Source: a virus
Taxonomy: Duplodnaviria > Caudoviricetes
DNA length: 61,047 nt
Virus record (IMG/VR): IMGVR_UViG_3300028198_000003
Location: 1-61,047 of that record
Reading direction: 5' to 3' (one strand)
Of the stretch, positions 2,354 through 16,827 are shown one piece after another. The position numbers were made by a program, and so were the translations under genes. The notes beneath the pieces were generated by a model. The model saw nothing but the letters and a program-made list of their open reading frames with translations. It ran no database searches and was not told the origin of the DNA. The stretch's first letter is position 1. Every line of letters starts with the position of its first letter.

Positions 2354-2375
2354 ACTACCTATTTAAAGAGATTAT

Positions 2376-2555: not shown

Positions 2556-2586
2556 ACCTATAAATAAGGTAGTGTATTAATATAAT

Positions 2587-2682
2587 TGGTTGTCAGGGAT
2601 TACCCACCGTTAAGTCGGGAATAATAAGGTAGCCCTCTTAAACCACCTAATAATAACTCGATAAGGGAACGGTTGTTATTAG
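2587..2682 (+). ncRNA. Putative small structured RNA
   Basis: TATA-like tataaata at ~2559. Stems tggtt/aacca and agggattacc/ggtagccct, plus hairpin ctaataataact/ggttgttattag with G-U pairs on +. No ORF. Confidence 0.35.
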
Positions 2683-2740
2683 TGTTTACTTTATATAGTA
2701 GTGTCATGTATATATGTTACTAGGTAACTAGCGTTCTATC

Positions 2741-2780
2741 AGGTCGATAGTGGACAAACACGTAAGATTTGTCCCGACCT
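2741..2780. other. Strong intergenic hairpin (aggtcg..ggacaaa / tttgtcc cgacct)
   Basis: Visible inverted repeat downstream of a tttatata box at ~2690. Confidence 0.5.
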
Positions 2781-2818
2781 ATAATAAGATTAATATAGGG
2801 TGTGTTCATAACATAATT

Positions 2819-3016
2819 ATGAATATACCTTTATTCTTTATAGGTTTGTTTTTAACTTTTACATTATTCCTAACTCCAGTAGGATTGATATTATTGTATG
2901 TATCTTTCAAACTTAACAATAAGACAGAAACAGTTGAAAGAAGATGCAAATACAAAGATGAAAATGGATATGAAATGAATACATACGATGAAGAACTGTT
3001 AGAAAATTTGCGTTAG
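2819..3016 (+). CDS. Small membrane protein
   Basis: Hydrophobic N-terminus (IPLFFIGLFLTFTLFLTPVGLILLYV). ATG 2819 preferred over GTG 2750. Confidence 0.7.
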   Translation: MNIPLFFIGLFLTFTLFLTPVGLILLYVSFKLNNKTETVERRCKYKDENGYEMNTYDEELLENLR

Positions 3017-3058
3017 ATATGCAAACATTTAATTAAGGCTAACATAGTATAACTACTT

Positions 3059-3277
3059 ATGAAAGGCTGCAAAGGATTATGTGACAGAATACCTGATAAT
3101 AGACCATTTGGAAACGCATACAAAACACATGTATTATGTAGACGTTGCGACAAATGGATAGAGAAAATTTACTTAGTTAATGAAAACTGTCCTTGCTGTA
3201 AACGTAGACCAAAAACAGTTTCAAGAAAAAATAAGAGAGAGACAGCAGTTAGATATGACATTCCAATACATGTTTAA
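3059..3277 (+). CDS. Small Zn-binding protein, CPCC family paralog 2
   Basis: CKGLC...CRRC...CPCC. Confidence 0.75.
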   Translation: MKGCKGLCDRIPDNRPFGNAYKTHVLCRRCDKWIEKIYLVNENCPCCKRRPKTVSRKNKRETAVRYDIPIHV

Positions 3278-3317
3278 TTCGATACGTTTATATTAGATAT
3301 ATATATCATACTATGTA

Positions 3318-4109
3318 ATGATAGGAATGACAACAATAGCACCAATAGTAGTTATGCTAGTTATCTTTGTAACTCTAATTGGATTTGCTTATGCAGAAAC
3401 ACCAGATCGTGTTACGGTTGACACTTTTCCTTTTGAAATCACAATGATGGAAGAGGGGGAACTTACAATAATTAACACTGGCAGTGTAACACACACGTTT
3501 AATCTAAGTGGTGGATTTTCTCATACAGTTGAAGCTGGAGAAGGATTGGTATTTAATTTACCTGATTACATGACAGCAGATAACACTGACGGTTGGTATC
3601 TATTTGACGAGGCTACGGGGGGATATAACATTATTCATACCGAAGCAGTCTATGTAGCACCACCACAACCAGTGTATGTCGCACCAGTGTACGTTGAACC
3701 GACACCAGAGCCAGTAGTAGCGAAGCCTTTAGAGGTGGTAACTACAAGCACTGGTATCAACAATGTCGCAACATACGACGGGGACGTTGACGCAAAGGCT
3801 TTACAAATAGCACTTGCAGATGTTACGGCAAACTTTAACAAGTCAGTTGAGAAGATAGCAGAGCAAAGAACGGAAATTGAGTTGCTTAACGCAAACGTAA
3901 CTTTGTTGCAAGTACAACAACAAGTCGTAACAGTTGACACAACAGAACTGGACAACAAAGTGTTGGCACTACAGGCAAACAATACGAGCCTAGCAAATGA
4001 AATAACCACCATCACAAACGACAGAGATGAGTGGAAGGCATTGGCAGAGAACTGGTATGGCGTTGCAATGGCACAACTAAAAGTCATGGTTAATATCTTA
4101 GGATTATAA
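3318..4109 (+). CDS. Secreted/membrane-anchored protein: cupredoxin-like domain, Pro-rich linker, C-terminal coiled coil
   Basis: Signal peptide ending AYA; LTIINTGSVTHTF...VEAGE...GWYLF resembles a plastocyanin-like fold; YVAP repeats; heptad-rich C-terminus. Confidence 0.65.
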   Translation: MIGMTTIAPIVVMLVIFVTLIGFAYAETPDRVTVDTFPFEITMMEEGELTIINTGSVTHTFNLSGGFSHTVEAGEGLVFNLPDYMTADNTDGWYLFDEATGGYNIIHTEAVYVAPPQPVYVAPVYVEPTPEPVVAKPLEVVTTSTGINNVATYDGDVDAKALQIALADVTANFNKSVEKIAEQRTEIELLNANVTLLQVQQQVVTVDTTELDNKVLALQANNTSLANEITTITNDRDEWKALAENWYGVAMAQLKVMVNILGL

Positions 4110-4338
4110 CCTAACTTTCTTTTTATTTTTTCAGTTACGTTTATATAGATGGTTATTAGTGGTAATGTATGGTAACAAAAGACATATCAGAACAATACTT
4201 TGATTTTTGTGATAGTGTATATGAGAACTGGAAACTAGCCAGTCAGTCATATTATATCTCATACATCAAACCATACGTCAAATAGACGTCTTTTTTTTTA
4301 TTAGATAGATTTATATAACGTTTGGGTGTAATAATAAC

Positions 4339-4563
4339 ATGATAGGATCAAAACAAATACAAATGATGATGTGTATTGCGTGTCAAAAATTAATCGCTGT
4401 ACATAGTAAACGTGACTTAGGACGCTGCCTATTTCGAGTGCAGGGAACTTTGATAGCCGAAGGCAAAAAACGAGTTGACGGGGACATTGAGAAATACAAA
4501 TCAAAATCCTTACCAGAATTGAATGAAGGCTTTGTAAAACAAGGCGAGGAGAAAATGCAATGA
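4339..4563 (+). CDS. Small Zn-finger-like protein (CIAC..H..C)
   Basis: ORF track; tttatata box upstream. Confidence 0.65.
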   Translation: MIGSKQIQMMMCIACQKLIAVHSKRDLGRCLFRVQGTLIAEGKKRVDGDIEKYKSKSLPELNEGFVKQGEEKMQ

Positions 4564-4772
4564 CTTGGGACTGTGACGAGTGCTATTCGCAAAAACAACT
4601 TTGCGAGGATTGCGAAAGCAAGGACTGTCCTTCATGCAAGAACATTAAAAATTTGCTTTTTAACACAAGCATTATAGCCTACGCATTAGATGATAATAAA
4701 AGTATAACGTGCAACAACGGACATACAATCTTCAAGCCTGAAGAGACTACCACGTTTGGAGTCATGCTGTGA
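4560..4772 (+). CDS. Small Cys-rich protein
   Basis: CDEC, CEDC, CPSC, CNNGH; ATGA overlap with the previous gene. Confidence 0.65.
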   Translation: MTWDCDECYSQKQLCEDCESKDCPSCKNIKNLLFNTSIIAYALDDNKSITCNNGHTIFKPEETTTFGVML

Positions 4773-5001
4773 GGGAATGAAAATGACCAGAACAATAAGA
4801 AAACGTGATACCAAACACCCTACTAGGGACGGTAATCACAACCCTGTATGCAAAGATCCAGATAACTGTGAGGATTGTAAAAATGAATAAAGTAATGACT
4901 GGTACGCCAAGACTTCATCCTTACTGTTTGATATGTAAAGAGTCATACATGGACTTTTGTGTTCTACATCATCATATTAAGGGCAGTTGGGAGATGAGGG
5001 A

Positions 5002-5199
5002 ATGAAACTAACCAAAGACAGATTCACTACATGGGAAGACATAAACGATAATGACTATGAAAAAGAATATGACGATGAGTTAATGATCAAAGTTTATCCA
5101 AACGAATCAAGTGTAGAGATAGCAGATTATATCTTATCGTTACAAGAACAAGTAGACAAGTTAAAAGCGGAATTAGCAAAGCATGAGGGTAAAGCATGA
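5002..5199 (+). CDS. Small acidic protein with C-terminal coiled coil
   Basis: MKLTKDRF start preceded by an SD-like gaggg. Confidence 0.6.
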   Translation: MKLTKDRFTTWEDINDNDYEKEYDDELMIKVYPNESSVEIADYILSLQEQVDKLKAELAKHEGKA

Positions 5200-5275
5200 G
5201 GGAGTGTGTGTGGTGCGTGATAGAACTAAAGTACCAAATGCAACTACCCAACCATACATGTGACGGGAGAAAATA

Positions 5276-5491
5276 ATGGCTTTAATTTGTAAAAACACAT
5301 GCCTAGAGCCTATATATGAACATAGGAAAACTGTAAGGCATATAGCAGAAACAGATTATAAAAAATGCAGCAAGTGCTGTGTATTTATAAAGTGGGAAGG
5401 TATATTTTGTCCTTGTTGTGGCGTACGCCTATCCAATAGAGCAAAGAATAACAAGGCTAGGCAGAGAAGGAATATAAAAATTGTCTTATAG
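5276..5491 (+). CDS. Small Zn-binding protein, CPCC family paralog 3
   Basis: CKNTC...CSKC-FIKWEGIF-CPCCG; clearly similar to 2156-2353. Confidence 0.75.
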   Translation: MALICKNTCLEPIYEHRKTVRHIAETDYKKCSKCCVFIKWEGIFCPCCGVRLSNRAKNNKARQRRNIKIVL

Positions 5492-5984
5492 ACCTGAAGA
5501 AGAAAAAGACTTGGAGGAGGAAGACTATGACTGTTAAACGAAAGACTTTTATATATAAATGAATTAATCATATTATGTATCAAGACAAAAAATTGAGACA
5601 AGATCATTTGGTTGAATTTAAGCGTGTATACGATAGGGTTTCTAAAGAGCCTAATCCTAACGAGTATAGACTTAAAAGGATACAGGAATGTATAAAAAGA
5701 TGTCAAGACTAATTAAGTTCATGACTAGCCTGTTTCATAAACATAATGATAATATTACAGGCATGTGTCATAGTTGTTGGAAGAGTAATGTTACTATTGA
5801 GGATAGGAGATTGATATTATGTCATGGTTGCTGTCAGGCTTCTTAACTGGGCTCAAAAAATCCTTCTCAGGCAGGGATTTTCTTAGAGATATAAATCAAT
5901 GCGTAAAGTGTGGTAAGCCCTCCTTTTTTTCATCGTGCCTAAAATGTGAAGTTGATGATGCTTATAAAGGTTGGAATAAACAAA

Positions 5985-6203
5985 ATGAACGATAAGGTAC
6001 AGCATTTTATAGTAGGCTTGTGCCTAAGTCTTACAGGCGTGTTTTTCTTCCCGTTAATAATAACAGGGTTTATATTTGGTATAGGCAAGGAACTCTACGA
6101 CTATGTTACTGGCAGAGGCGTAGCAGAATGGAAAGATATGTATGCCACTTTTTATGGTGCAGCCCTAGGCTCAGTAATAGTATGGATAGTATTGATACTA
6201 TGA
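5985..6203 (+). CDS. Small membrane protein (DKxxHF...KE..D...D motif, VanZ/YfiM-like)
   Basis: MNDKVQHF start; three hydrophobic segments; GKELYD and WKDMYAT motifs. Confidence 0.6.
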   Translation: MNDKVQHFIVGLCLSLTGVFFFPLIITGFIFGIGKELYDYVTGRGVAEWKDMYATFYGAALGSVIVWIVLIL

Positions 6204-6287
6204 CCAAATGTCCTCGTTGTAAAAAGGTTTATGACTCCCCTTGGCAAGAGTGTTATAAATGTATCGAAACAGTGTACCCCGAAACCT

Positions 6288-6392
6288 GAGCCTATTTGAG
6301 CCTAGTTGTATCCGTATTTTTTTCCGATTGAGTTGTAATTTTTTTCCGATTTCGTATATATAGGTTTCCTAAAATTCGTTTTTTTTCCATAG
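6288..6392. repeat. Short direct repeats and spaced T-tracts (gagccta x2, agttgta x2, tttttttccgatt x2)
   Basis: Directly visible in non-coding DNA. Confidence 0.6.
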
Positions 6393-6439
6393 CCACTAGG
6401 CACGCTATTAACGTTCCTAAACAGTGTGGAAATGTTATA

Positions 6440-6996
6440 TGTCTCGGACGCCTACTAATATTGTAGATTACTACGGCTTCACGCCTACGGGCGTCGGGCA
6501 GTAGTGATTAGCACACACGCCATACCAACTCGGTAGGCGTCTTATAGTTAGCATTGTATAGTGGACGCTCATTAGTAGGCTTACCTAGCCTGTACTAACT
6601 ACGTTCAAAGTTAATCTCAACAAAGATTATTGAGAGAGCACAGCAGTGTGTGAAGCCAATAGTCGAGAGTGTCAACTGAGAGCACCCATTGATAGTATTA
6701 ATGACCTAGAACGCTTAGTGTCGAGTGTGAGTGCCACTGCTCGTGGACGAGAGTGAATGAAGCGAGTAATTCAGAGAATAGACTGGACTCTGTTTATACA
6801 ACGTAGTGATACGACGAAACTGTTGAGAATCTGAACATTTATGACATTGTTCGGTAAATCAAAAATGGACTCCCTTAGTGGATAGAACATTCTCAACAAT
6901 CAAGACGCAAGCAAACTCGGTAGGAAAGGTTAGCAATAACTATAACTATCGAGGGCAAAATCTTTTACTAATACCCCTTTCGTGCCTGCTTTTTTT
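6440..6996 (+). ncRNA. Putative large structured non-coding RNA (RNA-1, ~550 nt), family unknown
   Basis: ORF-free and GC-richer than its flanks. Stems gacgcctac 6447-6455/gtaggcgtc 6533-6541, acgcc-TACG-ggcgt (UNCG loop), actacgtt 6598-6605/aacgtagt 6800-6807, tgttgagaat 6821-6830/attctcaaca 6889-6898. Ends in a T-tract. Confidence 0.6.
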
Positions 6997-7106
6997 AATT
7001 GGCACATTCCCCTAGCACTTGTAGTGATAGAATTAGAAAGGGTTATATACCACGTGCTCGCCCAGTATTCCAACAGAATAACTAGGCATAAGATAGCAAA
7101 CAAAGC

Positions 7107-7727
7107 GTGAGTTTATATAACAATACTTCTATTTCTATTGATTACTCTATGTGTGGGGAAAGAATGGAGTCAACCATTAGTAAATCTAAGATAGTCACAA
7201 ATATGGAAGCCATTAAGAACATAATGACTGACATACATAACGGTGACTCAACTATTATCAAAGGTTATCAAGCGATTGGTGACTATTCCGATAATAAATC
7301 CCCTGATTTTTTCAAAGGTGGTAGGTGTAGTTTCGATATTATTATCGAACCACCGACCGAACGCCTAGACTATTGGTCTTTGGGTGTGTTCGCAACTAGA
7401 AAGGCTATTGATATGCTAGCAATGGCGTGTCAATCCAATTCTGTTGCCTATGATGATATACTTGCTATGTCACATAGAACTGATAGGCACTATCACGGCT
7501 CTGAAGATAACTTCAAAGCTGAGACAGGTTTCTTATCAGCACTCATTACTCAATCAACAAGGCGTGCAAGACATGGTTTTGTATTGAAAACCACCCATTT
7601 CCCTGCCTCGAAAGAGATGATGGATAAGGTGTTTATTACAGTACAAGACGTCTTAGTGCAAGCAATACAAGAAGCTTCTACTTTGTCATTGTACAAACAG
7701 AGAAGATTCATGGAGTCATTATCTTGA
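7107..7727 (+). CDS. Hypothetical protein, first gene of the probable early operon (true start likely ATG 7149 or 7164)
   Basis: ORF track; tttatata box at ~7112. Confidence 0.7.
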   Translation: MSLYNNTSISIDYSMCGERMESTISKSKIVTNMEAIKNIMTDIHNGDSTIIKGYQAIGDYSDNKSPDFFKGGRCSFDIIIEPPTERLDYWSLGVFATRKAIDMLAMACQSNSVAYDDILAMSHRTDRHYHGSEDNFKAETGFLSALITQSTRRARHGFVLKTTHFPASKEMMDKVFITVQDVLVQAIQEASTLSLYKQRRFMESLS

Positions 7728-8758
7728 TAGTGACTGCAACAAAACGAAAGACGGTAAAAGATGACTACGCATACAAACATGTCAACCGTATAGGAGAGGA
7801 AGACGAGGGAGCACACCCTGCTCACCGTAGAGAATCCTCTTCATTTCATGGCGACTCATCAGTAGAGGTGAGTGGTAATGAAGGATACGAATGTGATGGC
7901 GATTGCGATTACGATTGTGATTGTGATGGTTGTCGTGTGTGTGATAACTGTGATACTTCACATGAAGATTGTGAATGTATAGATTGTAAACGTTGTAACG
8001 ACTGTGATAGAAGATTAGATAACTGTAGCTGTTATATAACTTCAGCAGTTGCTGATGATTGTGATGAATGTAGATTCATTCACCCAAGTTGTGCATGTGA
8101 TGAGGAATCAGAAGCATGTGGACAACATCAACGTGACGCATTTGAAGACAACTGTTATACTGACTGTGATAGCACATACCAACATTGTGAAGGCGACTGT
8201 GGTTGTGAGATATATCACGAATGTGGTATGAATGACGACAGTGGTTTAGTTGATGGCGAGATGGTTAGTCCACCATTATTACCTGCCCAGATGGCAGAAT
8301 GGTCTAGAGAAAACTATCCATCAGAAGTTAATACTTCATGTGGTAGTCACCAACATACATCATTCAAACTCATGAAAGACTATTGTATAGCATTAGATAG
8401 AGAATTAGAAACCTATCTAATACAAAGATTAGCCTCATGGGGCAAGAAAAATAATATAAATGCAGGCAGTGCATTGTATAATAGACTTGCAGGCGACAAG
8501 CATTGGTGTAGGAAAGGTTATAGAGGATATGACCAGCTAATTACATCAGAGAAATCAGATTGTAGGTATCAGATAATTAATTACTGCTACCTATTACATG
8601 GCACAGTTGAAGTGCGTGTACTACCAGCATTTGCTCAGGTAGAATTGAATGTATCTGCTCACAAAGAACTTACGAGAGCTATTGAGCAGTTTATAGAAGA
8701 CAACAAAGACTCGTTACAACAACGCAGAAAGACAATAACAATGGAGGTGATGGTCTAA
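7724..8758 (+). CDS. COOH-NH2 ligase (putative amidoligase, Amidoligase_2-like) with large Cys-rich insertion
   Basis: Ordered motifs IGEEDEG (GxExE), HGDSS, GEMVSPP, VNTSCGSHQH, RYQIIN, GTVEVR match the glutamine-synthetase-like amidoligase pattern. Confidence 0.8.
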   Translation: MIVTATKRKTVKDDYAYKHVNRIGEEDEGAHPAHRRESSSFHGDSSVEVSGNEGYECDGDCDYDCDCDGCRVCDNCDTSHEDCECIDCKRCNDCDRRLDNCSCYITSAVADDCDECRFIHPSCACDEESEACGQHQRDAFEDNCYTDCDSTYQHCEGDCGCEIYHECGMNDDSGLVDGEMVSPPLLPAQMAEWSRENYPSEVNTSCGSHQHTSFKLMKDYCIALDRELETYLIQRLASWGKKNNINAGSALYNRLAGDKHWCRKGYRGYDQLITSEKSDCRYQIINYCYLLHGTVEVRVLPAFAQVELNVSAHKELTRAIEQFIEDNKDSLQQRRKTITMEVMV

Positions 8759-8759
8759 A

Positions 8760-9725
8760 ATGTGTGTAATAATATGTATAGAAGATGGTAAATACCCAAG
8801 TAAGTCCACGCTTGAAGACGCAGAAAGTATGAATTGTCATGGTGGTTCAATAGCATGGCTTGATAAGAATGGTAAAAAGTATTACCAAAAAGGTATCAAG
8901 GCTAAAGCAATCACTAAGATAATCAAGAAGCAACTCAAGCCCAAAGGTATTAAGACAGCAATCATTCACTTTAGGATTGCAAGTGTAGGAAATGTTAACA
9001 AGAAACTATGCCACCCGTTTGAGATATCTAATAGAGTTGATCTTAATCTAAGTGGCGAACGCATGACTACTGACTTACTATTCCACAACGGAACATGGTC
9101 AGAGTATGCAGAGGAAATGTTAGAGTTCTTAGGCAAACATAACAAGCCACTAAAAATACCATACGGTGAGTTTAGTGACAGTAGAGTGATGGCATACCTA
9201 GCTAAACGCATGGGTGTCAGAAAGATGGCTAAGAAAGTAACAGGTTGGAATAAGATAGCAGTACTCACGAGTGATGGTATCAAACGATACGGCACAGGTT
9301 GGGTTAACTTCAAAGGTAACAAGTGTAGTAATGATTACTTTGTACCAACATTAACCTCATGGAGTTATGGGGGCATGGGTGACTATAATTTTGGGGATAA
9401 GTCAGGTAGTAAAGAGTATGGTGGTGGCGAGTATCTCAATGATGAAGAAACTCTTGTAGCTGATACATTAAAAAACGTCTACGACGTTACTGATGAAGAA
9501 ATCAATGACTACTTAGCAGGTGGCATGAGTATATTTGATGTTGAAGCTATGTATGAAGCAGCAGAATTAACAGTAGCGTATGAAGATGATGGTCAGATAG
9601 GAATGGAAGAGGAACGATTGATACCTGTTGATACAGATAAACAACTGAGTTATCAAAAGAGATTAGATGAAGAGTGTGCATTGAGTGAAGCGATAGAACA
9701 TACAAGGAGAGGAGCAATATGGTAA
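8760..9725 (+). CDS. Class II (Ntn) glutamine amidotransferase with acidic C-terminal extension
   Basis: N-terminal Met-Cys; NCHGGSIA, IHFRIAS, CHPF, LFHNG, SDSR motifs. Confidence 0.85.
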   Translation: MCVIICIEDGKYPSKSTLEDAESMNCHGGSIAWLDKNGKKYYQKGIKAKAITKIIKKQLKPKGIKTAIIHFRIASVGNVNKKLCHPFEISNRVDLNLSGERMTTDLLFHNGTWSEYAEEMLEFLGKHNKPLKIPYGEFSDSRVMAYLAKRMGVRKMAKKVTGWNKIAVLTSDGIKRYGTGWVNFKGNKCSNDYFVPTLTSWSYGGMGDYNFGDKSGSKEYGGGEYLNDEETLVADTLKNVYDVTDEEINDYLAGGMSIFDVEAMYEAAELTVAYEDDGQIGMEEERLIPVDTDKQLSYQKRLDEECALSEAIEHTRRGAIW

Positions 9726-10003
9726 CTAACATACAATCAATATACCCACAAAGTATGATAAGTAGAACACTATTAAAGGCACACAACAACCAACAAAATA
9801 GTATACTATGTCCGTACTTGGCTATTGCATTGGAAACAAACTTCATTAATGAGGATTACATTAGAATGTTCCCTAGTCAATTTGGTAGAATGTCAATGAG
9901 AAAAATCATAGACCACTTAGGTATGACTGAGTTTAATTCCAATAAGATTTGGCGTATGATTGAAGATGGTTATACTCTTGAACAAATATCGAGGAGTTTT
10001 TAA
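9719..10003 (+). CDS. Hypothetical protein
   Basis: ORF track; SD ggagga upstream. Confidence 0.7.
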   Translation: MVTNIQSIYPQSMISRTLLKAHNNQQNSILCPYLAIALETNFINEDYIRMFPSQFGRMSMRKIIDHLGMTEFNSNKIWRMIEDGYTLEQISRSF

Positions 10004-10106
10004 ATGAAGATGAATAACATAAGAATGATAACATTGCTACATAACTATGGGTATAGTCATAGACAAATTGATAGAATGATAGCATGGAATAAATCAGGAG
10101 TGACTG

Positions 10107-10250
10107 ATGATTGTTAGGTGTTCGCTTTGTGGTATGGAATTACCTATCGAACCACCCAGATTATCTAGGCACAATGAATGGCATCGTAAGGCGTGGGTAC
10201 AGCATAGGAATACTACTAACGGTACTCCTGAATGGTATGTAGTAGATTAA
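10107..10250 (+). CDS. Small C2H2-type Zn finger protein (CSLC...HNEWH)
   Basis: Translated by hand, 47 aa; SD-like ggagtg upstream. Confidence 0.6.
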   Translation: MIVRCSLCGMELPIEPPRLSRHNEWHRKAWVQHRNTTNGTPEWYVVD

Positions 10251-10254
10251 ATAT

Positions 10255-10740
10255 TATATTAAATTGCAATGTAGGTAAAGTATGTAGATACATCATGCCT
10301 ATGTTTATGACAACGGTAGGGTATATTATTTGGGGAAACATATACCCTGCCTACTTTTACCATAGTTCATGACGTGAACCTCTCAGGAGTAAGAACATAA
10401 AGTCATGACCTACTTAACACCCAGAGTTGTACACGACTACTGGGGGGGAGTAGAGTATAGCCCATGTGTAAGTTGAGGAATGGGTTTTACATATTATAGT
10501 TAACTAAGGAGATCTGAAACATCTTGGGAGTGGAACAACGACAGTTGTGTAACAACACTACAAGCGATAACAGTTGCCTTGTTAAACAACGTATTAGGAT
10601 AGGATTAGGAAGATATACTTGAGGTGTCTTACCAACTAAGTTTGGAACCAATGATAGTAATGACCTGATCAACATGCATAGACGTTAGTTAGTACATGGG
10701 CTTCCCATAAGAATAGCATAACTGAGATTAACAACGGTGC
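10255..10740 (+). ncRNA. Putative structured non-coding RNA(s) (RNA-3) inside the early operon
   Basis: ~490-nt gap with no long + strand ORF in a tightly packed operon. Hairpins ggtagggtatat/atataccctgcc, tcatgac/gtcatga, cccag/ctggg. Long-range pairs agcccatgt ~10459/acatgggct ~10694 and taactaa/ttagtta. Confidence 0.55.
10422..10438 (+). promoter_or_regulatory. Conserved motif CAGAGTTGTACACGACT, copy 1
   Basis: Identical 17-mer at 12082-12098; partial copies at 16217-16246. Confidence 0.6.
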
Positions 10741-10743
10741 AAC

Positions 10744-11127
10744 ATGATGAAACATGATAAAGAAACTGTCAAAGACAGGCATATATTTAGTCATCAAGAG
10801 TGTGGCTGTATAAATTGTTACAGGCATACTCGTGACATATTGATTGCTGAATTAGAAAGCCTTTGTATCATTGACGTACAAAAAGACCCCAATATAATGA
10901 GGTTGAGTGAGAAATTTGCTGACGCACTACCAAATAGTGAAAACGCTGACATTCCTCACATATCAAACGAAGATATTTGGGGAACACTGATAATGCGTTT
11001 CAATCAAACTGAACCTGACGCCATTCAAGACTATGGCATAATTATACGAATGGTGATAGATGTTTTGATTGAGACTCACAGAAACAATACTACAAACAAA
11101 CATGGAGGTGATATGTATGGAGTATAA
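10744..11127 (+). CDS. Hypothetical protein (HxxCGCxxC motif)
   Basis: ORF track. Confidence 0.7.
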   Translation: MMKHDKETVKDRHIFSHQECGCINCYRHTRDILIAELESLCIIDVQKDPNIMRLSEKFADALPNSENADIPHISNEDIWGTLIMRFNQTEPDAIQDYGIIIRMVIDVLIETHRNNTTNKHGGDMYGV

Positions 11128-11248
11128 AACAAAAAAACCAACTTACAAACAAGCCAAGAAAGCATACGAAGTATATCAATCAGGTATGAGTAATGGTGGA
11201 GAATTTTGGGATACGTTAGCACAGTATTTCAAAGGAGAAGAAGCATGA
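11117..11248 (+). CDS. Hypothetical 43-aa protein
   Basis: Translated by hand; ggaggtg SD upstream; ATGA overlap with the next gene. Confidence 0.55.
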   Translation: MEYKTKKPTYKQAKKAYEVYQSGMSNGGEFWDTLAQYFKGEEA

Positions 11249-11523
11249 ACCACGAACAATGGGTAAACGCTATCAAATCTAAGAAATCAGTCAGATTTAC
11301 TGAGGAGTTTTTGACTTCATTAACTCAGATTGGTATGGATAAAATAGAACCGTTCAAATATCTTGGAAGCAGTATGACAACAAGAGAAATGCATTTAGTA
11401 GAATGTAAGATGGTTGATTTCTTATCAAACAAACCAACACTAACTAACTCAGAACTATCAGTGTTACAATCATTGTTATGGGACGAGAAGAAGTTTGGTA
11501 TAATGAAAGAGGTGAAAGAATAA
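11245..11523 (+). CDS. Hypothetical protein (start MNHEQW)
   Basis: ORF track, start refined from the overlap and SD. Confidence 0.65.
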   Translation: MNHEQWVNAIKSKKSVRFTEEFLTSLTQIGMDKIEPFKYLGSSMTTREMHLVECKMVDFLSNKPTLTNSELSVLQSLLWDEKKFGIMKEVKE

Positions 11524-11702
11524 TGCAAATACAAAGTTGCAATACAAACACACCTGAAAAGGTATACGAGACTACGTTAGAATCGTGTACCTGTGGTGAC
11601 TGGCGATACAAAAAGTCAGTAACAGGAGAGTTGTGTAAACACCAAAAGATGTTGTGTGATGAAGCCCCACCAACAGTATCAGAAAGAACATGGAGGGAAT
11701 AA
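11523..11702 (+). CDS. SWIM-type Zn finger protein
   Basis: Y-x-T...CTCGDW...CKHQ (CxC..CxH). Confidence 0.7.
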   Translation: MQIQSCNTNTPEKVYETTLESCTCGDWRYKKSVTGELCKHQKMLCDEAPPTVSERTWRE

Positions 11703-11905
11703 TGACTGAGAAATGTTATGTGGTTGTAAGAGATACTGAAATTCTTCAATGTCTTGAAGAATATTACACATTAGATAATAAAGACGAGGCTAATGGTTTC
11801 ATTCTTGGCTTGAAAGTTGCAAGTAAGTATTATAATGACAAACTGGTGAGAGTTGAGGTAAATGAACCAGTAGAACCAGTAGAAGAGGAGATAGACAGAA
11901 CATGA
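11702..11905 (+). CDS. Hypothetical protein with acidic tail
   Basis: ORF track; start MTEKC after SD ggaggg. Confidence 0.6.
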   Translation: MTEKCYVVVRDTEILQCLEEYYTLDNKDEANGFILGLKVASKYYNDKLVRVEVNEPVEPVEEEIDRT

Positions 11906-12075
11906 CTGAGACATTCAAGTGCACCAACTGTGAAGAGTTGTTTAACATTGATGATGAGAATTACAGCAACGAACTTGACAACTCATACTGTGACTCATGC
12001 TGTGATGCAATGGAAGAAGACGAGCATGCGGCAAAGGTTGACCACATGATGGGTGTGATGGAGGACAGGGATTAA

Positions 12076-12135
12076 CATGTGCAGAGTTGTACACGACTGC
12101 TGCACACATACCCACACTGACATACGTGTTAGGTG
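12076..12135 (+). promoter_or_regulatory. Intergenic double hairpin containing motif copy 2
   Basis: tgtgcag-agttg-taca-cgact-g-ctgcaca followed by ccac..ctgaca/tgttag gtgg. Confidence 0.55.
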
Positions 12136-12141
12136 GAAAGT

Positions 12142-12390
12142 ATGACTGATATAACAAAACAAAAGACATGCCCTAACTGTGAAGACCAAGACTGTGAGAT
12201 AGATATGGACTTATGTGAAGGCTGTGAAAGATGTAAAACCTGTTTTGGTACAGGTATACAAGAGTATCAAATAGCAGTAGACGACTTTAAAGAAATGGGT
12301 TGTGAAGACTGTGGATATGATCCTAATGATAGTGACGATGCGTATGACGCATGGAAAGATGATCAACTTACGGAGAGTAAAGATGATTAG
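12142..12390 (+). CDS. Small acidic Cys-rich protein (includes DnaJ-like CxxCxGxG)
   Basis: CPNC, CEGC, CKTCFGTG, CEDCG. Confidence 0.65.
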   Translation: MTDITKQKTCPNCEDQDCEIDMDLCEGCERCKTCFGTGIQEYQIAVDDFKEMGCEDCGYDPNDSDDAYDAWKDDQLTESKDD

Positions 12391-12597
12391 ATACATGTTC
12401 ATGGACATACTTGACATGTCACCTCGTGGTAGATTCCAAGATGAAGATGATGAGGAAGATGAAGATGAGGAAGATGATTGATATGGATAAATGTGTAGAA
12501 TGTGGAAATGAAAAACCAATAGAAGAAATATTATGTTTACATTGTTGGTGTTTACAAAATAATTTTCCTTGTGAATGTAGGGAGGAAGATGAGGAAG

Positions 12598-12807
12598 ATG
12601 AGTAAACATATAGATATTTCTTTACCCAAATATAAATGGGGTAAATGTCATTGTCATGATTGTGATGAAGATGATATTATGTGGCAAAAGTCTAAAGTAT
12701 ACATTCCTTTACCTGATAACGTAAGACCAAAGAGTTCTTTAAAAATGGTTGATGAATTGAGTAGTAATAATCGTACCCACACCAATTATATTGGGTGGAG
12801 AGTATGA
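12598..12807 (+). CDS. Small Cys-rich protein (CHCHDC)
   Basis: Start MSKHID inside ORF 12571-12807. Confidence 0.55.
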   Translation: MSKHIDISLPKYKWGKCHCHDCDEDDIMWQKSKVYIPLPDNVRPKSSLKMVDELSSNNRTHTNYIGWRV

Positions 12808-13748
12808 CAGATACTATGGAAAAACAATTTATCGAGTCCATAAAACCGACTCAAGTAGATCCATCAGCTAGGACATATAAAGTTCCTACTGCTGAGATAG
12901 ATTACACTAACTATCTTCCTACAAAATGGGGAGTGGAATACGTGCAACTATCTGACGAAGCAGATGAACTGGAAGCCTGTCTTTTAAAAGGCATGAACTA
13001 TCTGATTGAAGGAGACAAAGGTTTGGGTAAAACCCAATTAGTACATAACCTATGTTTCAAACATACATTACCAATCGTCCCCATTAATTGTTCTGAAGGA
13101 ACAAAGATAGGAGACTTGATAGGTAGACCTCAGATTAATGAGTTCGGAAGTTACTTCCAACTTGGTGTACTACCAACAGCTATCGAGGTAGCAAATAAAT
13201 CTGAGCATAAGATAGCAGTTTTATACATGGACGAGTTCAATGCAATGCGTCATGAGATACAGAAGGCAACCAACTCTGTGACTGATGATAGAAGATCAAT
13301 CGTTGCAAACGGTACGACATACCGACTCAATAAAGGTGTAAAACTTGCAGTGGTTGCAACAATTAACCCAAGTACCTACGCAGGTGTCAACACATTAACT
13401 GAAGACACTAAGAGTAGATTCATTGGGGCTACGTGGGACTATCCATCTAGTGAAGACATGGAAAGAATTATTAACTGGAGTGGCATACCTGTTGATACGG
13501 TTAAAGAACCAATGTTAACACTCGTACAAAACATTCATAACTTGAGGATCAACGCAGATGTTGAGTACTCATTGTCACCTAGAGATGTGGCACAGTTTAC
13601 TGACTGTTATAGAATGTGGACAGATTCACCACTCAAAAAACCACTTGAAAGAAGTTTGAATAACGCAGTACTTTCAAAGTTTGGTGACACAACACAAAGA
13701 ACATTGATTAAGAAACAGATCATTGAGATATTTGGAGTGACCGTATAA
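12795..13748 (+). CDS. MoxR/CbbQ/CobS-like AAA+ ATPase
   Basis: Walker A GDKGLGKT, DLIG, Walker B LYMDEFN, ATINP..YAG, SRF, SPR motifs. Confidence 0.9.
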   Translation: MESMTDTMEKQFIESIKPTQVDPSARTYKVPTAEIDYTNYLPTKWGVEYVQLSDEADELEACLLKGMNYLIEGDKGLGKTQLVHNLCFKHTLPIVPINCSEGTKIGDLIGRPQINEFGSYFQLGVLPTAIEVANKSEHKIAVLYMDEFNAMRHEIQKATNSVTDDRRSIVANGTTYRLNKGVKLAVVATINPSTYAGVNTLTEDTKSRFIGATWDYPSSEDMERIINWSGIPVDTVKEPMLTLVQNIHNLRINADVEYSLSPRDVAQFTDCYRMWTDSPLKKPLERSLNNAVLSKFGDTTQRTLIKKQIIEIFGVTV

Positions 13749-15551
13749 ATGGTTCTACCATCATCTACTGATGTCACTCTTAATGTCAATGACTTTTTAT
13801 CTGAGCAGGAATATGACAGAAAGAAAGCAGGGATTATATCTCGTGTAGTTAACACGCCTATTGAAGTTGACTATCAAAGAGATCTAAACTGTGCTTACGA
13901 ATTAAATGATAAAGTAACAGGAAAAAGATCAGGGTTCAAAGTTATCAAAGCAAAACCTAAACTAAAAGGTATTGATGGTAACACAGCAATGAATCATGAA
14001 TTGGCACACGTTCTGTTCGATTCATTTGATCCCAAAGCACTTCAAACATTAAAAGACTGGGCATTTCAATGGGGTGCAGAAAACTCAAACGAGTATAGAA
14101 GAGCCTTTAATATATATCATACAGCAATGAATGTGATTGAAGACCAACGCATTGAGTCATTGTGGGGCAAGATATACTTGGGTAACTTTAGAGACTTTCA
14201 AAGAGTGAGAAAGAAGTTAGGTAAAGAACTAACATTCATTGACCACCCATCTGCTGTACTATTGGCAGAGAGATTCTTTAGACCTGACTTGGTAACACCA
14301 AGCAAGTATGCACACGTGGCACCGTTCATACATGATGTTGAAGGTAAGGATCTTAAAGCCACTATGATTGTCATGAATCGTATAAAACAATACCTTGATG
14401 ATAAGATTAAAGACATGGAAAAAGATGCTGAAGAATACAAAGACCAATCTGACAAGTATAACAAATGCAGCAGTGATGTATCAGATTCTTCTGATGAAGA
14501 ACAGAGAGCAAGAAGAGTTAAGGAAAGAGACTTTGAATATGACAAAGTAAAAACGATGAACAAAGAGATATCTAAGGACAATAATCCTGTTCAAATAGAA
14601 AGACGGGCAACACCTAGATTATCAAAACATGCACAAAATGCAGAATCACTGTATGGACTTGAAGATCTTGGAGCAGGAAAATATGAAGAGGCATTGGAGG
14701 AGGAACAAGAAAATGCACAACAAAAACTACAAGCAATCAAACAGAGTATGGAAGGATCAGATATGGTTAAAGTCCCATCATATATTAGAGACAAACCAGT
14801 AGACAAAACAGGTGGATTTAAACCTGTTATTGACAACCATATTGTTGCACAATTTAAAAGATTGTTGCGATCCTTCAAAGAAAAGACGCATGAAGACGCA
14901 AGTGATGAGGGATATGACTTGGACATTGGCGAATACATTAACATGAAAGCCAATGGATATGGTGATTGCTTCATAGAGGACAAAGACACCAATGGTCTAT
15001 CAATAATGTTAAGTATTGATGGCTCAGGTAGTATGAGAGATCACAACCCAATGGTTGCAAACATGGTAGCAACTATGCAAGAAGCAACCAAAGACCAAAA
15101 AGATATAGAAATAAAGACTATGGTTTGGTCGTCAGATCGTACAGGTAATGTAGCGATACAAAGGTATGAATCAGAAGATATTAAATATCTACCCACTCAA
15201 CGAGGTGGATACACACCTACACACTTTGGTATTGAAGCAGGCTCAAGAGAACTTGCAAAGATGAATGGTAGAAGAAAACTATTGATAGTAATTACCGATG
15301 GATTTCCAAACTATCATAACAACGGTACCAAAGTTAGAACAGATGCAACAGTGAGTGCAACAATTAAAGCCTACAAGAAATCAATGAGAACAACACCAAA
15401 CATAGCAATAGTTGGAGTTGGATTCTTAAATGTTGAATACATGAGAAGAATGTTTGGAAACAAATATATATCCTGTAGGTCTATGAAAGAAGTAGGACAC
15501 TTTATGACCACAACACTTAGTAGAGAAATAGTCCGAGTTATGAAACGATAG
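13749..15551 (+). CDS. vWA-domain protein (CobT/NorD-like partner) with N-terminal HExxH
   Basis: HELAH, NVIEDQRIE, MIDAS DGSGS, GYTPT, LIVITDGFP. Confidence 0.9.
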   Translation: MVLPSSTDVTLNVNDFLSEQEYDRKKAGIISRVVNTPIEVDYQRDLNCAYELNDKVTGKRSGFKVIKAKPKLKGIDGNTAMNHELAHVLFDSFDPKALQTLKDWAFQWGAENSNEYRRAFNIYHTAMNVIEDQRIESLWGKIYLGNFRDFQRVRKKLGKELTFIDHPSAVLLAERFFRPDLVTPSKYAHVAPFIHDVEGKDLKATMIVMNRIKQYLDDKIKDMEKDAEEYKDQSDKYNKCSSDVSDSSDEEQRARRVKERDFEYDKVKTMNKEISKDNNPVQIERRATPRLSKHAQNAESLYGLEDLGAGKYEEALEEEQENAQQKLQAIKQSMEGSDMVKVPSYIRDKPVDKTGGFKPVIDNHIVAQFKRLLRSFKEKTHEDASDEGYDLDIGEYINMKANGYGDCFIEDKDTNGLSIMLSIDGSGSMRDHNPMVANMVATMQEATKDQKDIEIKTMVWSSDRTGNVAIQRYESEDIKYLPTQRGGYTPTHFGIEAGSRELAKMNGRRKLLIVITDGFPNYHNNGTKVRTDATVSATIKAYKKSMRTTPNIAIVGVGFLNVEYMRRMFGNKYISCRSMKEVGHFMTTTLSREIVRVMKR

Positions 15552-15565
15552 GAGGTGATAATGAC

Positions 15566-15889
15566 ATGGATAAAATAGAAATCAAAAAACAAGAAGATAG
15601 GTTACGAAAGAAATTAGTAACACAGTTAGGTAACATGCAGTACATGTGGATACCAAAACATAGAATGACTACTGAAGAAATACAAGGGTTAGATCAACTT
15701 GAACTGGAATCACAACATAGAAAACATTCAACTCTATGGGTTGAGTACAAAGTTAAACCAGTAGCACCAGTAGTATGTTTGTCTTGTGGGGTACAAACAG
15801 GTAAGTATGAGAATCACTTACTTAACGACCAAGACAAAATGGAATGGTATAATGATGAGTGCCAAGAATGTATGAGTGATAATTATTAG
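15566..15889 (+). CDS. Hypothetical protein with CxxC pairs
   Basis: ORF track; ggaggtg SD. Confidence 0.7.
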   Translation: MDKIEIKKQEDRLRKKLVTQLGNMQYMWIPKHRMTTEEIQGLDQLELESQHRKHSTLWVEYKVKPVAPVVCLSCGVQTGKYENHLLNDQDKMEWYNDECQECMSDNY

Positions 15890-15905
15890 TCACTCATATT
15901 TTTTT
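15871..15905 (+). terminator. Hairpin plus T-tract closing the + operon
   Basis: tatgagtga-loop-tcactcata followed by T7. Confidence 0.6.
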
Positions 15906-15911
15906 ATATTT

Positions 15912-16265
15912 AATTGCGTCTTGATTGTTGCTCAACAGTTTCGTAGTATCAATTTGTAGGGGCTAATCAGTGTGTGAATTGACACAATCTTAGAAATCTA
16001 AATAAGATGAAAAGATACGGTGACTGATCATCACCAAGCTGGTGTATCTCCTTTATATGAGTTAGAACCTTCGGGTAAAGTACTCTTGTGCTGCTTAGAT
16101 AAAGGAGTTCCCAGTCTTTTAGCTACAGGGATTACATATCCCACATGAACGAGGCGTTTTCAGAATGGGCTTGAGGCTCATTGTAGAACAGGCACGCCTA
16201 CCTACATACAACAAAAAGTTGTACACGAAAATTTGTACACAACTCTATTTGGCAAAATAGGGTTT
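15912..16265 (+). ncRNA. Putative structured non-coding RNA (RNA-2); strand not certain
   Basis: ORF-free. Closing stem tgtagg/cctaca; stems agatac/gtatct, ggtga/tcacc, ctcctttat/ataaaggag, aggcgt/acgcct, aatgggc/gctcatt; acc-TTCG-ggt tetraloop on +. Confidence 0.6.
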
Positions 16266-16309
16266 TTTCTAAGCGAAACGCTTATATTACATTTATGTAT
16301 ATAGCAAAT

Positions 16310-16615
16310 ATGACTAACATATTTGTTTATGGAACTTTATTAGATGATACAGTAAGAGGTAGGGTATTAGGTAAAGATATTAAAGGAAAATCCGATACCT
16401 TAGAGGATTATATCATTGATACTCACAGTGTACTTACAAGTTATCCTACTATTGTACAACAAAACAGAGGATTTGTTAATGGCAAGTATTTTGACGTTGA
16501 CATGGAAGATATTAAGAAATTAGACCGTTATGAAAGTGAATACTATAAAAAAATAGAAGTTAAGTTAAAAAGTGGTGTTGATACTTTGGTATACACTGAA
16601 CGTATTTACATGTAA
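16310..16615 (+). CDS. Gamma-glutamylcyclotransferase (AIG2/GGCT family)
   Basis: IFVYGTL, YP, VNG, LDRYE..Y signature. Confidence 0.9.
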   Translation: MTNIFVYGTLLDDTVRGRVLGKDIKGKSDTLEDYIIDTHSVLTSYPTIVQQNRGFVNGKYFDVDMEDIKKLDRYESEYYKKIEVKLKSGVDTLVYTERIYM

Positions 16616-16827
16616 TTAGCCCAAGACATAGCATAAATTAATTTTTCCTCTTGATCTTCATCTAAATTTTCATCTTCTATTGCTGCATGAATCAATTCAT
16701 GTTGAATTGTACTTAAAATATCCTCTAAACACTCATGTCTATCCAAATATATGACTATTCTCTTGTTTTCAGAGTAATATATCCCTCTTTCTCCATGTCC
16801 TAACACTTGCATGCTTACTGTGACCAT
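16606..16827 (-). CDS. Minimal HExxH zincin-like protein
   Basis: G-x-Y...I-x-I...TIQHELIHA...EE. Confidence 0.7.
   Translation of the reverse strand: MVTVSMQVLGHGERGIYYSENKRIVIYLDRHECLEDILSTIQHELIHAAIEDENLDEDQEEKLIYAMSWANYM

Follow-up and report, generated by a model that had tools for sequence, protein, structure and literature searches.

Phages P1 and P7 encode the c4 RNA (Rfam C4, RF01695), a trans-acting phage RNA with two short segments complementary to one target mRNA, and the heteroimmunity of these phages rests on covarying guide and target bases. The CI RNA of the bacterial phage P4 is ~80 nt long and has its sites no more than a few hundred nt away, and P4 relatives of other specificities carry matched changes. 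This immunity factor is described as a stable untranslated RNA from the leader of the operon under its control (PMC4825925, citing Sabbattini 1995, Briani 2000), acting as an antisense RNA on complementary sites upstream and downstream in the same transcription unit and thereby causing termination (PMC4825925). For archaeal trans-encoded sRNAs, masking of start regions is described and interaction with the 3′ UTR is discussed as likely, the complementarity of trans-encoded sRNAs to their targets being partial as a rule (PMC3432209). Here, we analysed the record IMGVR_UViG_3300028198_000003 (Duplodnaviria; Caudoviricetes), a marine archaeal tailed virus, over its whole stretch of 61,047 nt (the window). 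Two non-coding regions, NC1 and NC2, are linked across an operon by a split complementarity, and the retention of this match with wholly different sequences in relatives points to a new virus-encoded antisense regulator.

The locus and its split complementarity

The features of the locus are as follows.

6290..7106, +: NC1, the long intergenic region leading from upstream small genes to the operon (ORF maps)
6317..6400, +: three T-rich TTTTTTTCCGAT-like repeats and a TATA-like TATATATA (~6354-6361), from sequence conservation
6568..6953, listed as + although the contigs are strandless: part of NC1 found in metatranscriptome contigs
6807..6827, +: left half of the guide, complementary to 15931-15951 (20/21)
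6828..6893, +: 66-nt hairpin inside the guide, stem tgttgagaat/attctcaaca (6821-6830 with 6889-6898)
6894..6910, +: right half of the guide, exact complement of 15914-15930
6916..6954, +: handle hairpin directly 3′ of the guide, with a lower stem, a GUAGGAAA / AUAACUAUC internal region and an upper hairpin
6990..6996, +: T7 run after the handle, conserved in NC1 alignment A1
7040-7051, +: TATA-like GGGTTATATACC, conserved in A1, putatively serving the operon
7107..15889, +: operon between the two sites (ORF map, protein-family scans)
15872..15905, +: terminator-like operon-end hairpin and T7 run; 15872-15879 pairs with 15890-15897 across the stop codon
15914..15951, +: target, a contiguous 38-mer complementary to the split guide
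15956..16212, +: NC2 core (GUAGGGGCUA ... CCUACAUACAAC), structured and conserved, its own ends pairing to close the fold
16245..16289, +: hairpin and T6 (16245-16268), then a BRE/TATA-like AAGCGAAACGCTTATATTA (16271-16289) serving the GGACT gene

The operon proteins include a Cys-rich 344-aa protein, for which no family match was found, a GATase-like protein, an AAA_5 (CobS/MoxR-like) ATPase (12795-13748), a VWA (CobT-like) protein (13749-15551) and a 107-aa protein (15566-15889), and this synteny is retained in the related genomes G001-G004. NC1 was found in all syntenic relatives examined, with a size of 0.9-1.6 kb, and consists in alignment A1 of a variable core flanked by conserved 5′ and 3′ blocks. 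The segment 6317..6400, nearly invariant in the window, L013, L019 and L034 and also present in L107, may drive transcription of a long NC1 precursor, or else serve as an origin or as a binding region for a protein. The terminator-like operon end is kept in relatives (alignment A3), and the conserved terminator-promoter module 16245..16289 closes the region in every lineage.

A sequence-only reading of this DNA had pointed out a split 38-nt complementarity between the two regions, and all its elements were found again. The match is exact between 15914-15930 and 6894-6910 (17/17) and extends over 20/21 positions between 15931-15951 and 6807-6827, the lone mismatch placing G6813 of NC1 opposite A15945 of NC2, which is no wobble pair. 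Hence the contiguous 38-mer is the complement of NC1 with 66 nt left out; the junctions fall at 6827|6828 and 6893|6894 and are staggered by 2 nt across the stem, as 6827 pairs with 6892 and 6894 with 6825. Both the 38-mer (one N, ≤3 mismatches) and the split pattern occurred a single time in the window and in 0/100 dinucleotide shuffles each. The halves alone reached blastn E values of 0.005 and 0.02 in a 15-kb self-comparison and are, moreover, adjacent. This complementarity is neither a product of chance nor the trace of a paralogue; comparing the NC1 and NC2 intergenic sequences revealed no further similarity beyond the 38 nt.

The target fills the variable segment between the T-run of the operon and the NC2 core, and the corresponding segment of L103 is the same with 3 substitutions. 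Natural variants of the hairpin stem include a compensatory exchange (6830 T>C with 6889 A>G) and 6829 A>G, which gives a G-U pair with U6890; a further variant differs by numerous indels in its apical portion, and L019 carries a hairpin at the same place. In the predicted fold, the inner 5-7 nt of the guide are tied up in the base of the 66-nt hairpin, which speaks against pairing.

Structure and RNA-library coverage

Folding the handle alignment (A4) with RNAalifold, we observed compensatory changes in 5/10 pairs and a covariation score of 0.514, compared with 0.192 ± 0.043 in shuffles (0/500 reached the score) and ≤0.104 when the alignment was slid. The G-U pairs of the handle favour the + strand, and a covariance model (R1) found one handle match in the window. 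Judged by covariation, the handle is thus shown to be an RNA structure of the + strand. The fold z-scores of NC1 (6400-6960) likewise favoured + (-3.27 vs -1.37), a UNCG hairpin (acgcc-UACG-ggcgt, 6481-6494) is predicted on +, and the T7 run behind the handle is likely an archaeal-type terminator of the NC1 RNA.

For NC2, the alignment comprises 60 pairs, 10 of them with compensatory changes, and invariant G-U pairs favouring +; the z-scores were -4.59 on + and -1.72 on -. A second UNCG hairpin (acc-UUCG-ggu, near 16066-16071) is predicted on + and covaries in relatives. The target lies directly 5′ of the conserved start of the NC2 core in the window, L103, L107, L104, L105 and L111, while L108 and G002 have lost the NC2 core by deletion and retain the target. 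The NC2-side copy is a variable leader. These observations bear out the UNCG loops, the + bias of the G-U pairs and the + structured, non-coding nature of both regions that the sequence-only reading had proposed, and they give no support to its alternative of NC2 as a - strand paralogue with a shortened hairpin, as NC2 is a + RNA with its own fold that has only the 38 nt in common with NC1. Its idea of NC2 as a splint seems to have the roles reversed, the guide-like part being the NC1 segment beside the conserved handle.

Both sites are present in contigs assembled from marine metatranscriptome runs of four studies (X1-X4); such contigs carry no strand, end or level information, and the libraries may contain DNA. 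Guide and handle are covered by contigs of all four studies, with starts at 6587 (X1, X3) and 6568 (X2, adapter letters immediately before), and one X4 contig stops at 6953 with adapter letters behind; these starts and this end hint weakly at a stable small RNA processed from a leader transcript. Contigs of X1 (6587-7395) and X2 (6568-7647) span the T-run and link NC1 to the first gene without a gap, although a contig across two genes does not equal a single transcript, and an X3 contig (14979-15963) extends from the VWA gene through the target. No contig of the four RNA runs joined 6827 to 6894, a joint that had been suggested for inspection, or NC1 to NC2 (contigs can miss rare forms), and none contained a strand-changing joint.

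Guide and target pairs in related viruses

In seven of the 11 related contigs that contain both regions, an NC1-side segment is complementary to a + site downstream of the operon on the same contig. Where the handle was recognisable as well (six contigs), it was in every case the segment abutting the handle that complements a + site, at most ~1.3 kb past the VWA gene. One of the six is the window itself, with its 17/17 and 20/21 positions. The match amounts to 14/14 in each of L108, G003 and G001, and to blocks of 10 + 12 + 13 nt in G002, with the handle itself between blocks 2 and 3. In L107 it is 21/22 (NC1 4139-4160 vs 12163-12184), and its mismatch, G in NC1 and T in the target, would be a G-U pair if both are + RNAs, the only intermolecular one seen. 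In comparisons of 5000 x 1300 nt, the pairs were the longest or second-longest exact complementary matches in 5/6 contigs; the exact core of L107 ranked third and extends to 21/22. The seventh contig, L132, whose VWA is 43% identical, shows a pair of 17 nt (94%) at analogous distances, its target just 5′ of the same TGTACACAAC and T-run module. In the other four, G004 (L093/L147), L135, L143 and L145, neither a convincing pair nor, with model R1, a convincing handle was found; among the relatives examined they are on the more distant side, with VWA 40-50% identical, and three positives fall in this range as well.

The guide and target sequences are unrelated between lineages, so the complementarity is not kept by shared ancestry alone. 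Each 13-14-mer is limited to its guide and target places among 170 loci (including the whole of G001-G003). These comparisons support the view that the complementarity behaves like a selected pairing, retained in relatives despite changed sequences. The position of the target varies: it follows the last gene of the operon in five lineages, and in G003 and G001 it falls within the opening codons of small ORFs, which weakens any model with a single outcome.

Further partners were found across contigs, for which linkage in the same genome is inferred. NC2 of L105 contains the exact complement of the L013 guide GTTCAACGACTTGT, and NC2 of L104 that of the co-occurring variant GTTTAACAACTTGT, found in loose ends of X2 and X3. 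Between these two pairs, two positions are changed on both sides, amounting to one double compensatory change; together with the matches kept by different sequences, this is the kind of compensation between the sites that the earlier reading had proposed to look for. The split guide of L019 matches a contiguous target in L111 (25/26 plus shorter blocks), and the L034 guide had no partner among the loci compared. Targets of the G001, G002 and G003 types turned up again in metagenome contigs independent of these genomes (L130, L119 and L121/L122, respectively). In a strain that shares 99.2% identity over the first operon genes (19 differences/2261 nt), the guide is a different one. Guide and target are, in our best reading of these sequences, a matched, fast-evolving cassette pair.

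Possible modes of action

With moderate confidence, we propose that NC1 gives rise to a + ncRNA with a guide that anneals to the + transcript at the operon's distal end. The 3′ domain of this RNA would consist of the lineage-specific guide, the conserved handle and the T-run, and the guide would pair with 15914-15951, just past the hairpin and T-run of the operon and just before the NC2 RNA, forming a 38-bp helix from which the 66-nt hairpin, a tolerated insert, would project as a three-way junction. We infer that such pairing takes place in vivo, in trans or in a read-through mode, and that its likely consequence would be control at the boundary of the operon and the downstream unit. This might be definition or protection of the 3′ end, or antisense-dependent termination or processing, and a translation block would be an option for lineages with the target placed on a start region. 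Further, the cassettes may constitute an RNA-based specificity determinant of marine archaeal tailed viruses, by which the NC1 RNA of a strain recognises only its own type of operon end for autoregulation and for interference with co-infecting relatives (heteroimmunity or superinfection exclusion); we put this forward tentatively and hold it to be rather doubtful. If true, this role of the pair in strain-specific autoregulation and interference would be the reason why strains with 99% identity in neighbouring genes differ in their matched pairs.

The same complementarity could act within one molecule, if read-through from NC1 gave a ~9.4 kb transcript in which the 5′ leader folded back onto the 3′ end, looping the operon for end protection or processing in the manner of the processing stems around archaeal and bacterial rRNAs. 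The unbroken RNA contigs from NC1 into the first gene and from the VWA gene into the target fit this idea, as does the bracketing of the operon by the two sites in most lineages. Nevertheless, we consider it unlikely: the contigs are no proof of a single transcript, NC1 and the operon are separated by a T7 run and a distinct TATA-like element, both conserved, the targets of G003 and G001 lie beyond the terminator-promoter module or beyond the GGACT gene, and a bulge-helix-bulge motif is absent. A two-piece ribonucleoprotein or split RNA made of NC1 and NC2, comparable to split tRNA genes or crRNA-tracrRNA and used for assembly, for trans-splicing or to process the 5′ end of NC2, would agree with the + structure of both regions and with the target directly preceding the NC2 core in the six loci named above. 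We regard it as improbable, as L108 and G002 keep the guide-target pair without that core, no bulge-helix-bulge can be drawn at the junctions, and the four RNA runs held no joint from NC1 to NC2, rare forms aside.

A role at the DNA level is quite unlikely, too, either as inverted repeats of a recombinase delimiting an invertible or mobile 9-kb segment or through an NC1 RNA that guides a protein to the DNA site or forms an R-loop there. The copies are indeed inverted and bracket a block of genes, the guide-plus-scaffold layout resembles that of guide RNAs of RNA-guided DNA-binding proteins, and the DNA contig L102 (VWA 99% identical) stops exactly one base before the target. However, the genes keep a collinear order and orientation in G001-G004, L107 and L108, the RNA contigs lack strand-changing joints, the target moves between lineages, and no TnpB, RuvC, recombinase or Nop family match was obtained in the 10 proteins scanned; moreover, one copy is broken up by a 66-nt hairpin or the handle, which fits an RNA three-way junction but no recombination site. 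Finally, en-bloc replacement of cassettes instead of many single compensatory changes is what recombination would produce, and the match might be a non-functional remnant, an inverted copy from a replication or recombination accident held similar by occasional gene conversion. This appears highly improbable given the retention of the match next to the handle, in an equivalent structural position, in seven lineages with unrelated sequences, the double compensatory difference between close variants, and the survival of the pair through NC2 deletion and target relocation.

Comparison with known RNA systems

The whole window gave no Rfam match at the gathering score, and at E ≤10 only chance-level matches appeared in 6200-7200 and 15850-16350, the best being CRISPR-DR45 (20.8 bits, gathering 37, E = 1). 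NC1 and NC2 fall outside every Rfam family, including C4 antisense RNA, snoRNA, CRISPR repeats, group I/II introns, RNase P and SRP; the earlier reading had recognised neither arrangement as an RNA family known from archaeal viruses.

Archaeal split tRNA genes and rRNA processing stems likewise join distant complementary leader and trailer sequences in a long helix beside a structured RNA, and a bulge-helix-bulge consists of two 3-nt bulges around a 4-bp helix. Here, in contrast, every position of the stem 6821-6830 / 6889-6898 is paired, the junctions are staggered by 2 nt, and the four RNA runs contained neither a spliced nor a circular joint, so that intron-type or split-gene trans-splicing was rejected. 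Box C/D sRNAs have a C (RUGAUGA) and D (CUGA) K-turn and ~12-nt guides ending at D or D′; the only resemblance is GUGAUAC (6805-6811) with CUGA 19 nt later (6832-6835), with no terminal D box and no snoRNA model match in NC1. H/ACA guide RNAs have a bipartite guide flanking an upper stem, an unpaired target U and an ACA box ~14 nt away. A bipartite guide around a hairpin is present, but the target has 0 unpaired nt in the window and AC in G002, and no ACA box was identified. A viral mini-CRISPR array is contradicted by the single handle in the window and the lack of an NC1 direct repeat among the repeat families listed. Inverted repeats of an invertible segment or transposon are at odds with the collinear relatives and the lack of strand-changing joints, and no recombinase family was found in the 10 proteins scanned, a subset of the ORFs. 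For omega-RNAs or guide RNAs of TnpB, IscB, TldR or TIGR-Tas, the flanking proteins showed no RuvC, HNH or Nop domain (Pfam, PHROGs), and there is none of the tandem arrays that characterise TIGR-Tas.

As in cellular archaeal sRNAs, an intergenic RNA would pair with a distant mRNA site, and the targets of G003 and G001 fall on start or early codons; unlike those sRNAs, this one would be virus-encoded, with near-perfect pairing of 14-38 nt in the same genome and hypervariable matched cassettes. The phage antisense immunity RNAs share two traits with this locus: an RNA segment is complementary to a site in a transcript of the same element, and guide and target covary, here in seven in-contig pairs with unrelated sequences, the double compensatory case being a cross-contig linkage. 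In contrast to P4 CI, this RNA belongs to a virus of an archaeal host and has, 9 kb away, a single site at the distal end of the operon; its guide is split by a hairpin and joined to a different conserved handle, and sequence or Rfam similarity is absent. From P1/P7 c4, it differs in architecture, size and host domain, and neither region gave a match to this family at E ≤10. An action like that of the P4 CI or P1 c4 RNAs, without homology to either, is the best reading of these parallels. Should the more doubtful idea of a specificity determinant be true, archaeal viruses would have their own equivalent of P1/P7 c4 and P4 CI, based on a new handle structure that perhaps recruits an unfamiliar protein.

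Genome layout and the split complementarity

The portal protein encoded in the window matches PHROG portal families and is ~24% identical to haloarchaeal tailed virus portals; the window, an IMG/VR virus record of 61,047 nt with an estimated completeness of 98%, is therefore, judging from these protein matches, an archaeal tailed virus, and the runs containing it are marine or seawater metatranscriptomes. Its genes lie on the + strand from about 2000 to 16600 and on the - strand elsewhere. The following features of the + block are of interest here.

6290-7106, inside the + gene block: NC1, a long non-coding region
7107-15889, + strand: operon between NC1 and NC2, encoding an AAA_5 (CobS/MoxR-like) ATPase and a VWA (CobT-like) protein among others
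15890-16294, inside the + gene block: NC2, a long non-coding region
15956-16212, + strand: NC2 core, a structured RNA of ~260 nt, conserved and outside known families

A sequence-only reading had described a 38-nt complementarity between NC1 and NC2 that is split on the NC1 side, and this was confirmed to the base: 15914-15930 is the exact reverse complement of 6894-6910, 15931-15951 is that of 6807-6827 with one mismatch, and the 66 nt between the two NC1 halves are the upper part of a hairpin (stem 6821-6830/6889-6898), across which the junctions are staggered by 2 nt. We refer to the two NC1 halves as the guide and to the 38-mer as its target. The 38-mer and the split pattern are each found at a single place in the window, and neither was seen in any of 100 shuffles; NC1 and NC2 share no further sequence beyond this complementarity. 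An Rfam search gave no match to NC1 or NC2; no tRNA was found in the window and no match to NC1 or NC2 DNA among named phage records. The exact 17-mer has eight matches in IMG/VR, all in unrelated contexts and attributed to chance, and the motif halves were not found in 80 portal loci when up to 4 and 3 mismatches were allowed.

NC1 is kept in all four long relatives (G001-G004; 0.9-1.6 kb) and has three parts, namely a conserved 5′ block (T-rich repeats, TATA-like box), a core that varies, and a conserved 3′ block consisting of a hairpin directly 3′ of the guide (6916-6954), the handle. In an alignment of eight sequences, 5 of the 10 predicted handle pairs show compensatory changes and 89.9% of cells are paired; the covariation score of 0.514 was reached by none of 500 shuffles (0.192 +/- 0.043), and slid controls stayed at <=0.104. 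The G-U pairs of the handle are compatible with the + strand only. R1, a covariance model of the handle, finds it only in close relatives (the window, L024 and L019); four more matches with E 0.1-1 were not accepted as handles. Within 6317-6400, a TATATATA box sits among three copies of a TTTTTTTCC(G/A)AT-like motif that are near-invariant in relatives; they could act as a strong promoter, as repeats bound by a protein or within a replication origin.

NC2 is conserved in many relatives. The last gene is followed by a hairpin with a T-run, then by 0-50 nt of variable sequence, which in the window is exactly the 38-mer target, and then by the conserved core. The core starts with GTAGGGGCTA and ends with CCTACATACAAC, followed by a hairpin and T-run and then by the promoter-like element of the GGACT gene. 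Its fold has a z of -4.59 on the + strand vs -1.72 on the - strand, with the 5′ GUAGGGGCUA predicted to pair with internal and 3′ segments; 10 of 60 predicted pairs show compensatory changes, and there are invariant G-U pairs. It is found in the window, L103-L105, L107, L111 and L113, and is absent or deleted in L108, L109 and G002.

Elsewhere in the genome, a 344-aa protein (7724-8758, +) carries over 20 invariant cysteines in the N-terminal half, and its conserved C-terminal domain has DGELVSP, SCGxHxH, NYCY and ExR motifs. Pfam and PHROG gave no match to this protein, which is conserved across G001-G004 and precedes a GATase-like protein and then the AAA_5 and VWA pair. A 1599-aa ORF (32161-36960, -) with many diverged repeats in a 60-nt (20-aa) register presumably encodes a tail or fibre protein. 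A perfect 22-nt inverted repeat, ATTGCAGGTGGTGTTGCTTGTG, has its arms 12 kb apart (25009-25030/37261-37282) in the - strand gene block. The 15-nt unit GTTTTGCAACTTTAG is repeated at both record ends (1-35 and 61009-61043), which suggests that the contig closes on itself within a repeat-containing gene and that the genome is circular or circularly permuted.

Guide-target pairs in related viruses

Relatives were collected by a portal-based IMG/VR scan (324 found, 80 of them kept) and a VWA-profile scan (40 loci from metagenomes and 20 from viruses); the 344-aa and VWA proteins, each used alone as a query for loci, gave no match in viral contigs. Between NC1 and NC2 the four long relatives are collinear in gene order. 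The NC1 segment adjoining the handle is the complement of a + strand site past the operon on the same contig, while the sequence itself is different in each lineage.

Guide-target pairs within single contigs (L, related contigs and loci)
Window: 17 + 20/21 nt complementary
L107: ATAATCCGACGACTAAAATCAA vs TTGATTTTAGTTGTCGGATTAT, 21/22 nt, the mismatch being G opposite T
L108: 14/14 nt, kept despite the deleted NC2 core
G002: blocks of 10, 12 and 13 nt vs a contiguous ~39-nt stretch immediately past the VWA stop codon
G003: 14/14 nt, target among the initial codons of a small zinc-ribbon-like ORF
G001: 14/14 nt, target at the start of a small ORF, on its ATG and initial codons
L132: 17 nt, 94%, at analogous distances; VWA 43% identical

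The L107 guide is contiguous and ends 1 nt before the handle, and its target directly precedes GTAGGGGCT. In G002 the handle sits between guide blocks 2 and 3, giving a split geometry like that of the window with a different hairpin. A handle-adjoining pair is present in all six contigs with a recognisable handle, and in five of these six it is the longest or second-longest exact match in comparisons of 5000 x 1300 nt. Pattern searches across all loci confined each 13-14-mer to its two sites among 170 loci, whole G001-G003 included. Overall, 7 of the 11 contigs having both regions carry a pair, and no convincing one was found between the regions of G004, L135, L143 and L145. Rejected candidates were an 18-nt pair in L135 with its partner within a coding gene and pairs in L143, L145 and L147 that are AT-rich or misplaced. 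An exact 15-mer pair in G003 (L091, reverse-complement orientation; 2498-2512/10607-10621) is probably chance (E 0.47); its arms lie in both regions of interest, at the very start of NC1 and at a site past the 107-aa-gene homologue.

The pairs extend across contigs. The target types of G001, G002 and G003 recur in independent metagenome contigs (L130, L119, and L121 and L122, respectively). The guide of L013, whose portal is 97% identical to that of the window, is GTTCAACGACTTGT, and its exact complement is the NC2 variable segment of L105. The L019 guide, split by a hairpin at the place equivalent to that in the window, matches a contiguous L111 NC2 segment (25/26 plus shorter blocks). L103 has a window-type target with three substitutions, and the L034 guide has no partner in the collected loci.

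The region in marine metatranscriptomes

At least 14 RNA runs contain parts of the region, of which four from four studies (X1-X4) were examined; these are assembled contigs, from which strand, ends and level are not provable and in which DNA carry-over is possible. Contigs start at 6587 (X1, X3) and 6568 (X2, with adapter letters immediately before), and one ends at 6953, the handle 3′ end, with adapter letters behind. Contigs also continue from NC1 into the first operon gene, and one runs from the VWA gene over the T-run and target to 15963. No joint of NC1 to NC2 and no strand-changing joint is listed in the RNA contigs, nor is a joint of 6827 to 6894. Mean depth was 53-127 for contigs with 6587-6953 vs about 11-21 for the compared operon contigs, a difference that, contig depth being a poor measure, is a hint only. 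Bins 6164-6527 and 16356-16700 were uncovered in all four runs, such contig gaps being no evidence either way. At or near the target, DNA contig L102 ends at 15913, two X1 contigs end at ~15930 (inferred positions) and an X3 contig ends at 15963; we do not rely on these ends, which may be genuine RNA ends or a sign that strains differ at the cassette.

The contigs also contain natural variants. In the stem of the 66-nt hairpin, 6830 T>C is accompanied by a compensatory 6889 A>G, and 6829 A>G gives a G-U pair on the + strand; in a further variant, numerous indels affect the apical part. The variant guide GTTTAACAACTTGT, a loose end in X2 and X3, has its exact complement in L104 NC2, with two positions changed on both sides, and guide and target may derive from one genome. 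The L013-type guide is found in a contig that matches the window at 99.2% identity over its operon part (19 differences/2261 nt), which makes the guide a hypervariable cassette within genomes that are nearly identical elsewhere. Relative to L013 and run X3, the NC1 core 6455-6911 is replaced whole rather than the guide alone, in a strain with a 97% identical portal and 99.2% identical first operon genes; NC1 thus looks like a recombination hot spot or cassette.

A candidate antisense RNA and its alternatives

Seven lineages with unrelated sequences retain the complementarity in an equivalent structural position, which independent drift cannot achieve. The match is kept by selection or by repeated copying, both of which imply function, and a remnant without function is most improbable. 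We infer that NC1 is the gene of an antisense RNA comprising guide, handle and T-run, with its cognate site at the distal operon end, because a hairpin or handle is tolerated inside the guide (a three-way junction), the handle RNA structure lies on the + strand, the L107 mismatch is a G-U pair and the target survives without the NC2 core. A role at the DNA level is quite unlikely, since a guide split by hairpin or handle and the G-U in L107 are unlike a recombination site or protein operator, to which the + strand handle and a target without the NC2 core are likewise a poor fit. Pairing inside one read-through transcript seems unlikely, and a two-piece particle of NC1 and NC2 RNAs very unlikely. 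Readings as C/D box, H/ACA, BHB, CRISPR or omega-RNA were rejected, since for each of these classes defining features were missing.

For the antisense RNA, pairing of guide and target would most plausibly lead to 3′-end definition or protection, or to antisense-dependent termination or processing limiting downstream read-through; we favour such effects because the target directly follows a T-run with its hairpin, and RNA contigs end a short way beyond the target. In G003 and G001, where the target lies on start regions, pairing could instead block translation.

To our knowledge, no trans-acting regulatory RNA of uncultivated marine archaeal viruses has been characterised by experiment, and a literature search, mostly at the level of titles and abstracts, found no such RNA described for marine archaeal viruses. 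The system provides a defined RNA whose structured handle covaries, a target-finding rule (the complement of the segment adjoining the handle), natural matched variants as ready-made compensatory mutants, and evidence of the region in the ocean RNA libraries of four studies. Should the pairing be functional, viruses of abundant marine archaea would supply a model, open to direct testing, for the timing of gene expression or for strain-specific interference, and a new guide-plus-handle module with a possible protein partner. A poorly conserved 206-aa protein encoded beside NC1 is one viral candidate for such a partner. The NC1 RNA, which we take to be functionally close also to the c4 RNA of P1/P7, lies outside the P4 CI and P1/P7 c4 families, differing in its architecture, its archaeal host and the lack of an Rfam match. 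In function it would be closest to the CI RNA of P4 (PMC4825925).
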